Shown here: piece after piece, positions 20,789 to 24,069 of the stretch
How the letters are laid out: each line of letters starts with the position of its first letter
How positions within the stretch are numbered: the first letter of the stretch is position 1
NCBI GenBank assembly: GCA_030295235.1
Contig: AP026147.1
Span: forward strand, 62,001-126,000
DNA length: 64,000 nt
Origin: Fistulifera solaris
Lineage: Eukaryota
Direction of reading: 5' to 3'
Notes under the pieces: model-generated
Told to the model about the DNA's origin: nothing
Databases searched by the model: none
The model's input: only the letters and a program-made list of their open reading frames with translations
Translations under genes and position numbers: made by a program

Positions 20789-22194
20789 GCTAGCTGGCTC
20801 ATTTGAGCTTGTATCTTTTTGTTTCTGTGCAGCGACAGTTTGTCTTTGATTAGCTTATGATGATGTTGTAGAGTTTTGATCCGAATGTTATTATTAGAAA
20901 TCGAACATTTTATATTTTTCAAAGACTAGTGATACTAGTTATACAACGAAAAGCGAATAGGTTGTAGTGAAGGATACCTTGTACACACTCGATGTGCCGT
21001 ATTCCGTTTTTCTAGGCGTACAACATAGCAACCGTAACAAGTACGGAGTACATGGTACGAGGTCGGAAGCATTTTTCTGCGCTGTAACACCTTGCCGTTC
21101 CAAAACAAACTCATCCAACAACTATCGAGGCGAAACATTGTCACGACGCAACGACACGCGGCCATTTCGACTCAATGAAACCACCTTGCTAAGGACGAAA
21201 GCTCCTACCAGTCTACGTGGAAATAGCCAGCACTCCGAACAAGGATAATTCACACGCCCAAACATGCGACAAAATACACAGAAAAGTACCAGTTTGCCAT
21301 TTCGCCCGAAAGGTACAAAGGCAAGACACATTAAACTCTCTTTGTCGTTTGTGCAACCGAACACCACGAAGACCATCGTTTCTTATTTTTCCCGTGTCGC
21401 TCCGTGCACATCTCAACGATATTTCTCGTAAAACCCTCCAACCATCTCCCACCTTCTTTCTTAATTCCGACTAATTACTTTAAATTATAATAATTTACCG
21501 CAAACGACGCGCTTCACGTTCCCATTCCAACAAGCACAGAATGTCTCCCTCGCGAACGGGTCCCTTGACGTTGCGGACGATGGAACGTCCCGTGGTACCA
21601 CCACCTTCGGCATCCATGAATTCGACACGAACTTGCGTGACATTACCGGTATTACCCGTTCGTCCGAGAACGCGGTTGACTTTGGCTAATTTGACGGGTT
21701 GATCCTGTGGAAAGAAAGCAAATGATAAGTTTTAGTAATGCGGTAAGTGGTGTCAAGAAGGAATGCGGTGAAAGTTGTTTCGGCAATTGCTCGTTTTGAC
21801 GGTCGTCCTGTTCTCTCTTGATAATTATTTTATATAGATAGAATAAACGACAAAGAGAAAGAATAGATTATCATGTCGAAAAGAAACGTACCATGGTTGC
21901 TTGGTTGTTGTTGTTGAAAAGGATTGTGGGCATTTTGTTTGATAACACAAACCAGAGGCGGATGGAGGAAGGCCTTAAACGGATGAGCAGACAGACGAGC
22001 GGACGGCTGAACAAAGAATGGACAGAAGGACAGACGGATGTTGCATGTTGGTTTTCGTATAGTTTTTCGATACCGTAACGAAAACTTCGAATGCCCCTTT
22101 GCTTGTGAATGAAAAAATAAAGCGATCGGAACATTTTTTAGGCTTCGAAGAACCAAAAGACAATTGTGAACTGCCTTCCCAGCTCCCACTTACT

Positions 22195-22995
22195 ATGAAA
22201 TATGGTCTAGTTCTTTGTTCCTTGTGTTGTTGGACGGAAGGATGGATGCATTCCGTTTCAACGAGCCGAAGAAATTGCTACGACAATTCGCTGAGGACTA
22301 CTCTTCGACGCTCCAGCACGTCACACGACGCCATTTCGACAATTCGTGAACCTTCCAAAGGAAAATCAAAGACGAAAACTGAATCATTTACTAACAAACA
22401 ATCAACGACACCTCTGTTTTGGCACAATGCTTCGGATCCTACCGTCTTTCATTATCACAATACTACTACTACTGGTCTGACATTCCGCATCCGCGGCAAT
22501 CCCCTACCGTTGCAGCGACACCGTCAAACCCGACGTGGATTTGTCTACAATCCGTCACAAACAGCCCAAACCGCCTTTCGTCAAGTCCTGGAATCGCAAC
22601 TGGTATCCCAACCAGAAACACCACTGTTCGAGGAGACGATTCCCCTCCACATGTCTTGTCATTTTTATATGAAACGATCCTTATCGGATTTTGTCGCCCA
22701 AACCCGTGGACGACCTTTGAAAATGGCAGCCGCCACTGTGTTGTCCACACGGACCCCCGATGTTGATAATTTGGCCAAATTCGTTTTGGATTCGTTGAAT
22801 GGTTTGTTGTATGCGGACGATCAGCAGATTGTGTCCTTGTCCGTTCAGAAACTCCGAGACAATGAGGGCGAGTGTTGGGGTTATACGGATGTACATGTAT
22901 CAGTAGTGAGTGATAAGGACGGGAGTTCTATGTTGCTGACGGATGATCCAGAATCCATCCGTCATGTGTTACAAGTGAAGAATCATCTTGTGTAA
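22195..22995 (+). CDS. rusA: RusA-family Holliday junction resolvase with bipartite presequence
   Basis: Catalytic motif PDVDNLAKFVLDSLNG...ADDQQIV and N-terminal strand FRIRGNPLPLQR...YNPS. The N-terminus MKYGLVLCSLCCWTEG-W is followed by a Ser/Thr/Arg-rich stretch. Confidence 0.85.
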   Translation: MKYGLVLCSLCCWTEGWMHSVSTSRRNCYDNSLRTTLRRSSTSHDAISTIREPSKGKSKTKTESFTNKQSTTPLFWHNASDPTVFHYHNTTTTGLTFRIRGNPLPLQRHRQTRRGFVYNPSQTAQTAFRQVLESQLVSQPETPLFEETIPLHMSCHFYMKRSLSDFVAQTRGRPLKMAAATVLSTRTPDVDNLAKFVLDSLNGLLYADDQQIVSLSVQKLRDNEGECWGYTDVHVSVVSDKDGSSMLLTDDPESIRHVLQVKNHLV

Positions 22996-23415: not shown

Positions 23416-24069
23416 ATGAATACAGCACAACCATCACTGTTATTACCGGCCGCCGGACAAGACGGATCGTCCTTTCGGGCTTCCTTTTCCGCCGAAGAAA
23501 CGCATGTCGAAGTCATTCCGGATTTCACGGCCTCTCCTTCATTCATGGCGGGCGTTCCGGTCCAAGTGCCTCTGTGGAAAGCAGAATTGTTGCAAACCCG
23601 TTCGTTGGGTCGCATTGTCTTTCCGGATTGGTTATCCATTGATAAATTGCGTCCGATTTTGCAACAAGAAAAGACGCAGCCACTGTTGACAACATCACTG
23701 CCCTTCTATTATTACGAACTGACACGGAAACTCACCAATCGACCGCGACACGATGACACGAATCCCGATGTTTTACGACTATTGGTGGAAGATATCTTTC
23801 AAGTGCGCGTGGAAAAATTGCGACAACAATTTCCCGCCTATCTTGCGTTAATGGAAGATCAAGACATCCCCAAAGTCGATGTTCCCGGTATTGCGAGTGC
23901 GGAATTGGTACTCTTGGGACCCTTTCTGTTGCAAGCACTCGGGGATCGGGCGTTGTTGTTGCAGCAAACGAAAACGAACAAGAATGATGCGGCAGAGGAG
24001 CGTGGGGAAGATACGGTCACTGGTGAACCCATTCGACCCAAAGTTCCTTTGCGACGCTTTCGGCGTTAG
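23416..24069 (+). CDS. PSF2: DNA replication complex GINS subunit Psf2
   Basis: F.AEET.VEVIPDF, PVQVPLWKAELL, IVFPDWLSIDKL, LPFYYYE and LVEDIFQVRVEKLR follow the Psf2 motif order. Confidence 0.9.
   Translation: MNTAQPSLLLPAAGQDGSSFRASFSAEETHVEVIPDFTASPSFMAGVPVQVPLWKAELLQTRSLGRIVFPDWLSIDKLRPILQQEKTQPLLTTSLPFYYYELTRKLTNRPRHDDTNPDVLRLLVEDIFQVRVEKLRQQFPAYLALMEDQDIPKVDVPGIASAELVLLGPFLLQALGDRALLLQQTKTNKNDAAEERGEDTVTGEPIRPKVPLRRFRR

Follow-up and report, generated by a model that had tools for sequence, protein, structure and literature searches.

The window analyzed here, a 64,000-nucleotide stretch of Fistulifera solaris DNA, contains a gene that, by its sequence, encodes an intact RusA-family nuclease with predicted junction-cleaving activity. 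Similar proteins occur across diatoms, and we think it probable that the diatom-wide RusA is imported into the plastid stroma, where it would resolve junctions in plastid DNA. That RusA serves as the main, MOC1-like plastid resolvase is a further step for which the odds seem somewhat lower. The RusA enzyme family is known; a member conserved in diatoms and probably sent to the plastid is likely new.

A Single-Exon RusA Gene in Both Homoeologues

The RusA gene lies at positions 22195..22995 on the forward strand and consists of one exon encoding 266 amino acids plus a stop codon, as indicated by an uninterrupted open reading frame, a Pfam match, and unspliced RNA from its homoeologue. It is flanked by the divergently oriented gene for ribosomal protein S28e (RPS28; 21495..21894, reverse strand; Pfam 9e-29) and by a gene for a Psf2-like GINS subunit (23416..24069, forward strand; Pfam Sld5 and PSF2_N). 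The first exon of RPS28 is the ATG alone, followed by a single 187-nt intron whose splice joint is present in RNA, and a 300-bp divergent promoter region is common to RPS28 and the RusA gene.

A RusA search of the same genome returned 12 matches from 14 candidates, comprising the RusA gene, an intact second copy, and 10 others. The second copy lies on another contig in the same gene order (RPS28, RusA, GINS Psf2) and matches F. solaris FisN_15Lh327 across the 85 residues compared. F. solaris is an allodiploid, and from their sequences we read the two copies as a homoeologue pair of this species or a close relative. The nuclear location proposed in the initial annotation is borne out by the position of the gene between RPS28 and GINS Psf2 in both homoeologues. 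This synteny between eukaryotic genes, together with conservation across diatoms, rules out contamination or a recent insertion.

None of the sequencing runs listed is recorded as RNA; three were taken as RNA by their behavior, namely, a poly-A end and spliced RPS28. A 910-base RNA contig bearing the homoeologue alleles starts ahead of the first ATG and covers the gene to its end with no splicing; the homoeologue is thus transcribed unspliced through the first ATG. The window copy's own alleles appear as a low-depth hint in one RNA-like run only. The earlier observation that the gene has no intron is confirmed by the continuous reading frame in the DNA and by this contig, which passes the end of the domain without a splice. 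As a pointer to horizontal acquisition, the same observation did not hold up: the acquisition appears ancient and diatom-wide, so a missing intron has no bearing on the question. The neighboring Psf2 reading frame likewise carries both of its domains in one frame.

Between the homoeologues, the RusA domain differs by 12 nonsynonymous changes over 331 sites versus 23 synonymous changes over 107 sites (dN/dS 0.15), with values of 0.47 for the linker and 1.09 for the tail. The RusA domain is under purifying selection. A pseudogene is ruled out by this ratio and by the homoeologue transcript.

An Intact Catalytic Set on a RusA Fold

The RusA nuclease domain spans residues 95-242 (22477..22920; all features of this gene are on the forward strand). 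Pfam RusA (PF05866) matches residues 101-224 with E = 3e-16 and 60.6 bits against a gathering cut-off of 22.8, and PHROG 140 (phrog_140) matches with E = 1e-21. An NCBIfam search and a single-sequence PDB search with the window protein gave no match; a profile of 33 family members searched against the PDB returned E. coli RusA as its sole match (E = 0.0085).

The protein carries the motif D189-x-D191-N192-x-x-K195...D199...D208-D209-x-Q211...K219, with its catalytic part D189-V-D191-N192-L-A-K195 at 22759..22779 and D208-D209-Q-Q211 at 22816..22827. In the profile alignment, D189, D191, N192, K195, D199, D208, D209, Q211, and K219 correspond to E. coli D70, D72, N73, K76, D80, D90, D91, Q93, and K101. 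All but Q211 are unchanged throughout the 114 aligned rows, and Q211 is present in 113. We take D72 and D91 to be catalytic residues of E. coli RusA; the equivalents of catalytic D70, D72, and D91 and of K76 are all kept (D189, D191, D209, and K195). The substitutions D70N, K76A, and R69A impair the E. coli enzyme, as described in PMC12120656. R69 has no match in the window protein, where the position is P188. An Arg stands one place before this position in 92 of the 114 family rows and two places before it in the window protein. Because Pro is also found here in many phage relatives, we did not treat the R69 equivalent as defining for RusA membership.

An AlphaFold model of residues 72-266 has a mean pLDDT of 89. 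Its only Foldseek matches at E ≤ 0.001 are seven chains, all of E. coli RusA (including 2h8e and 1q8r; best E 7e-6); RNase H-fold resolvases are absent among the listed matches. With the Pfam match, the eight invariant residues, and this predicted RusA fold, the claim of an intact RusA catalytic set stands. A homodimer model scored 0.61 versus 0.06 for the best of three controls, with contact agreement of at least 90% and pLDDT of at least 85, and its interface includes D189-D191 and D208-K220. This score passes the mark used for homodimers, which 20 of 30 solved homodimers attain against 1 of 23 monomers and, among eukaryotic proteins with no older solved relative, only 1 of 7. The prediction may echo the solved RusA dimer.

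A Diatom-Wide Family

A word search retrieved 163 relatives from 456 candidates, with names and features resting on the best 120 of the 163. A profile search of 1.84 billion representatives gave 340 matches at E ≤ 1e-30, mostly diatom-like among the best 150 of the 340. Named members among the matches listed come from Fistulifera, Epithemia, Amphora, Cyclotella, Attheya, Arcocellulus, Fragilariopsis, Phaeodactylum, and Thalassiosira pseudonana; all eukaryotic matches with names are diatoms, most matches being unnamed. Judged by these relatives, the RusA family is common to centric and pennate diatoms.

Common to the members are an N-terminal leader, a Lys-rich linker, and a [HYF]W-x4-D element. 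In the window protein, this conserved extension covers residues 72-94 (22408..22476) and is predicted to form a β-hairpin joined to the RusA sheet (pLDDT of the block 94-97). Its Trp is present in 102 of 114 rows, the other 12 being gaps. The hairpin was not seen in the viral relatives, whose reading frames begin at the RusA core.

The Phaeodactylum orthologue is Phatr3_J54080 (Phatr2a_54080, XP_002177873.1), and the Thalassiosira orthologue is Thaps3a_5334. Phaeodactylum has four RusA-domain genes in the PMC5859163 supplement (EG00539, J47133, J54080, and Jdraft1304), of which J47133 carries a signal peptide and an endomembrane call and Jdraft1304 is methylated and weakly expressed. In the literature searched, which was mainly open-access and was judged on titles and the beginnings of abstracts, we found no paper on a diatom or organellar RusA, and the supplements of PMC12136025 make no mention of the RusA gene. 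It appears in literature supplements as automatic annotation only, some of the tables being incompletely readable.

Predicted Plastid Targeting Signals

To place cleavage sites, we used a weight matrix of the von Heijne type that covers only positions -13 to -1, and ASAFind was re-implemented from Table S2 of PMC4329603, with a transit score of 2 as the cut-off for high confidence. The re-implementation reproduced the published 4.157/1.340 for Phatr2a_54080 exactly. In the window protein, the best site follows TEG with a score of 7.6, the next best scoring 1.1. The predicted signal peptide thus comprises residues 1-16 (22195..22242; dN 0.055, with two amino acid differences between the homoeologues). 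W17 at +1 is among the residues that the ASAFind rule accepts there (F/W/Y/L) and is followed by Met18, a possible second start (22243..22248).

Residues 17-71 (22243..22407) form a fast-evolving Ser/Thr/Arg-rich transit-like region followed by a Lys/Thr-rich linker; the first 30 of these residues (17-46) include 7 Ser, 5 Arg, 4 Thr, and 2 Asp. The transit score of 1.32 is below 2, and the protein is classed as "plastid, low confidence". The homoeologue and the relative P0003 receive the same call, with cleavage after TEG, W at +1, and transit scores of 1.1-1.5 across the three; the close relative P0004 is called "not plastid". The first ATG and the signal are kept in both homoeologues and in P0003, and the first ATG lies inside the homoeologue transcript. 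In public databases, the entries for the Fistulifera proteins start at Met18, which leaves out the signal. The signal peptide ending in TEG-W and the transit-like region of the initial annotation are therefore present as predicted anatomy, and the ASAFind check it had proposed, run here as a re-implementation, returned the plastid class at low rather than high confidence.

The family provides a broader test. The N-terminal set was drawn from 217 stored relatives, of which 167 had a Met start, 185-400 residues before the catalytic motif, and at most 480 amino acids, leaving 153 after removal of shared N-termini. Signal-like N-termini were found in 96 of the 153 at a cut-off of 3.5, versus a mean of 23 and a maximum of 34 in 100 shuffles. 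The 96 divide into 28 plastid calls at high confidence, 33 at low confidence, and 35 "not plastid", and 28 of them have F at +1, compared with 5.6 at random transit positions. The plastid share of 61/96 (64%; 28 high) is not above that of all SignalP-positive Phaeodactylum proteins (1608/2648, 61%; 895 high), so the share alone has no discriminating value. The remaining 57 members show no signal at this cut-off, and many of them may have gene models that are truncated or start in the wrong place.

In a test devised after the ASAFind family results were seen, 88 of the 153 N-termini combined a hydrophobic 8-mer with a subsequent [AGSC]-F (mean 10.4 and maximum 17 in 200 shuffles). Residue by residue, enrichment is 13.8 for F and 9.1 for W versus 1.2-5.6 for the other 18. 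On these sequence features, the case for plastid targeting appears weak for the window protein taken alone and strong for the family, and the targeting first proposed for this one protein gains its support family-wide.

Published predictions are negative: Phatr2a_54080 is classed "Not plastid, SignalP positive", the PMC5859163 supplements give "Other" for Phatr3_J54080, and Thaps3a_5334 is entered as "SignalP negative". We suspect gene-model or predictor misses, because a high-scoring ASAFind site (7.6/5.0) lies at residue 33 of Phatr2a_54080 and the Thaps3a_5334 model has a second Met followed, by eye, by a hydrophobic stretch and A-F.

Alternative Locations

Met18 directly follows the predicted cleavage site and is where the public records begin. 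A start at this codon would expose the Arg/Ser/Thr-rich leader as a presequence, and the enzyme could then serve mitochondria, alone or together with the plastid. Diatom aminoacyl-tRNA synthetases show such a signal-then-Met pattern with dual targeting, according to PMC4494062, and a search of the genome for Ydc2/Cce1 was blank, as was its control everywhere. Nevertheless, just 20 of 88 family members have a Met in the 25 residues that follow the site, which we estimate to be about what Met frequency alone would give. P0004 has no Met near its site, and the first ATG is both conserved and transcribed. We consider a mitochondrial role unlikely.

Ranked after it, and likewise improbable, is a location outside the stroma, either in the periplastid space or ER or, for a Met18 form, in the nucleus, where the protein would be a backup structure-selective nuclease with the Lys-rich linker as its localization signal. 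The "not plastid" calls for the Phaeodactylum and Thalassiosira models, the low transit score of the window protein, the four RusA-domain genes of Phaeodactylum, and the signal-less members of the clade would all fit such a location. Against it, we know of no DNA in the diatom PPC, the negative calls are perhaps misses, as argued above, and the [AGSC]-F motif is 8-fold above shuffles in the family, whereas PPC proteins lack F or W at +1 (PMC12136025).

Several members of the diatom-type clade (P0041, P0336, and P0340, and by eye P0121 and P0356) have no signal and instead carry acidic V/I-I-x-L-L-S-S-D-E leaders. These leaders resemble what we take to be SUMO-interaction motifs, as in nuclear SUMO-binding proteins, and the members bearing them arise at several places in the tree. 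They may be nuclear forms. No such form was found in the F. solaris genome itself.

Plastid Recombination and Competing Candidate Resolvases

A bacterial-type RecA is encoded in both homoeologues (L147/L148, on contigs C6 and C5 of G000) and is called "plastid, high confidence" by the same pipeline, which returns "not plastid" for signal-bearing unrelated reading frames beside it. With a plastid signal on RecA, junctions should form in the plastid. We found no match to RuvC or RuvB in the genome, with controls positive in 8/14 and 10/14 genomes, respectively. Searches of the genome for Pox_A22 and Ydc2 were blank, with controls also blank everywhere. RecG gave no clear match in the genome; two below-cut-off matches fall on an SF2 helicase (L145/L146, on C22 and C21), RecG- or Mfd-like with a weak RecG_dom3_C match, whose N-terminus lies outside the locus.

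YqgF/RuvX homoeologues are present (L090/L091, on C1 and C2). In L091, a predicted signal precedes W at +1; the N-terminus of L090, in the frame read, is of another kind and is not a signal. On this basis, the signal-bearing YqgF/RuvX is a competing candidate plastid resolvase. RusA might then be located in the plastid as a secondary debranching nuclease, with YqgF/RuvX or an undetected MOC1-like enzyme as the main resolvase. YqgF, however, is mainly known as an rRNA-processing nuclease. Such a division of labor would suit the absence of a clear RecG, since in E. coli the rusA gene is ordinarily silent, can be dispensed with, and depends on RecG when it stands in for RuvABC (PMC5055574). The apparent lack of RuvABC (judged from the RuvC and RuvB searches) and the strong diatom-wide conservation of RusA speak instead for a needed role, and we rank a secondary role last among these improbable alternatives.

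Our preferred reading is that of a stromal resolvase. The bipartite signal would direct the protein to the stroma, with the signal peptide cleaved after residue 16 to reveal a transit peptide beginning with W. There, a RusA homodimer would cut four-way junctions left by RecA-dependent recombination and repair, presumably by making paired, Mg-dependent cuts in Holliday junctions in the manner of E. coli RusA. Catenated plastid chromosomes would in this way be separated before nucleoid partition, the task that MOC1 performs in green plastids. MOC1 is a dimer with an RNase H fold, and chloroplasts require it to segregate their nucleoids (PMC7078210).

Virus-Type Relatives and Proposed Origin

The best viral matches, at 37-40% identity, lie in tailed-phage replication modules, and the contexts of phrog_140 relatives include DnaD/DnaC loaders, Erf/RecT, and terminase. 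Cultured phages match at 27-36% identity. One RusA of a related branch (L092:6001-6450) lies on a giant-virus contig, near an NCLDV capsid gene. An ESM Atlas search returned viral RusA clusters alone, and a GTDB scan with a narrow pattern gave one distant locus from 39 pattern matches. One relative, P0305, is a fusion of RusA to a PF00908 domain.

We built a tree from 92 rows and 144 columns, one row without the motif having been dropped; the outgroup behind the root is not monophyletic. The 36 diatom-type rows cluster together (98/79), with 39 phage/giant-virus-type rows as their sister group (92/98). Both fall within a starred 78-row group (99/90), to which the telomere-associated copies, on a long branch, also belong. 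Constraining the diatom rows with giant-virus-like rows gave a tree 19.8 log units worse (p-AU 0.27, not rejected), and constraining them with the telomeric RusA improved on the free tree by 3 log units (p-AU 0.55, not rejected). The plain reading of these relationships would be a foreign, virus-type origin of the diatom gene. The phage-type ancestry put forward initially thus survives as a phage/virus type; the nearest relatives found are RusAs of environmental tailed phages and giant viruses, not of the lambdoid E. coli type, and the phylogeny places the diatom proteins beside virus-type kin rather than nested in a named lineage.

A further RusA family in the genome shares about 34% identity with the window protein (L003-L008, on C16, C46, C8, C38, C5, and C33 of G000) and comprises at least 10 matches, further ones lying on C2, C37, C8, and C43. 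The copies read are frame-broken at differing places and form two groups, with 97-98% and 66-85% DNA identity, and TTAGGG/CCCTAA runs occur at four of the six loci. A metagenome scan with the telomeric RusA gave three distant loci, and the two that were read are phage- or bacterial-like. Judged from sequence, the broken, telomere-associated family may share an origin with the plastid-type gene.

The acquisition would be old, from a phage, a prophage-bearing bacterium, or a giant virus, before the split of centric and pennate diatoms. We offer, as a doubtful but conceivable extension, that a virus-derived RusA replaced ancestral Holliday-junction resolution in the plastid, and that a single entry into the diatom ancestor gave rise to both the plastid-imported, nucleoid-segregating resolvase and the RusA repeats at chromosome ends.

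Significance and Comparison with Known Systems

For plastids of the red secondary lineage, junction resolution and genome separation are not described in the literature searched; green plastids use MOC1, which has an unrelated fold. The Phaeodactylum orthologue, Phatr3_J54080 (XP_002177873.1), provides a named candidate in a genetically tractable group. That it was overlooked is likely due, our results suggest, to public gene models that have the wrong start Met or defeat the predictors. If our reading is true, diatoms arrived convergently at a virus-sourced solution to the problem solved by MOC1, and eukaryotes would have, to our knowledge, their first example of a native RusA in a housekeeping role.

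Phage-type nuclear genes acting on organelle DNA have precedents in TWINKLE and RPOT, discussed in the review PMC4166229. These are T7-like, unlike diatom RusA, and no resolvase is listed in that review, the words "Holliday" and "resolvase" having 0 matches in the text searched.

The closest structural comparison is E. coli RusA (PDB 1q8r, 2h8c, and 2h8e), which we take to be encoded by the DLP12 prophage. The two proteins share the fold (TM 0.73-0.76 over the target), the catalytic motif, and the predicted dimer, RusA being a homodimeric, Mg-dependent junction resolvase according to PMC12120656. The diatom protein differs in its identity of only ~15%, in not keeping R69, and in its nuclear eukaryotic gene, and it adds a bipartite leader, a Lys-rich linker, the W-containing hairpin, and an R-P-x-x-H-F loop insertion. 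The nearest relatives are the phrog_140 resolvases of tailed phages and giant viruses, which have H-R, Y-[ND]-P-S, and R-P-K-x-H motifs in common with the diatom protein but are 130-175 amino acids long and lack its N-terminal extension. The likeness to MOC1 of Chlamydomonas and Arabidopsis lies in the proposed role alone, that of a nucleus-encoded, plastid-imported dimeric resolvase (PMC7078210). MOC1 has an RNase H/RuvC fold and the diatom protein a RusA fold, which would make the latter an analogue, not a homologue, of the green plastid enzyme.
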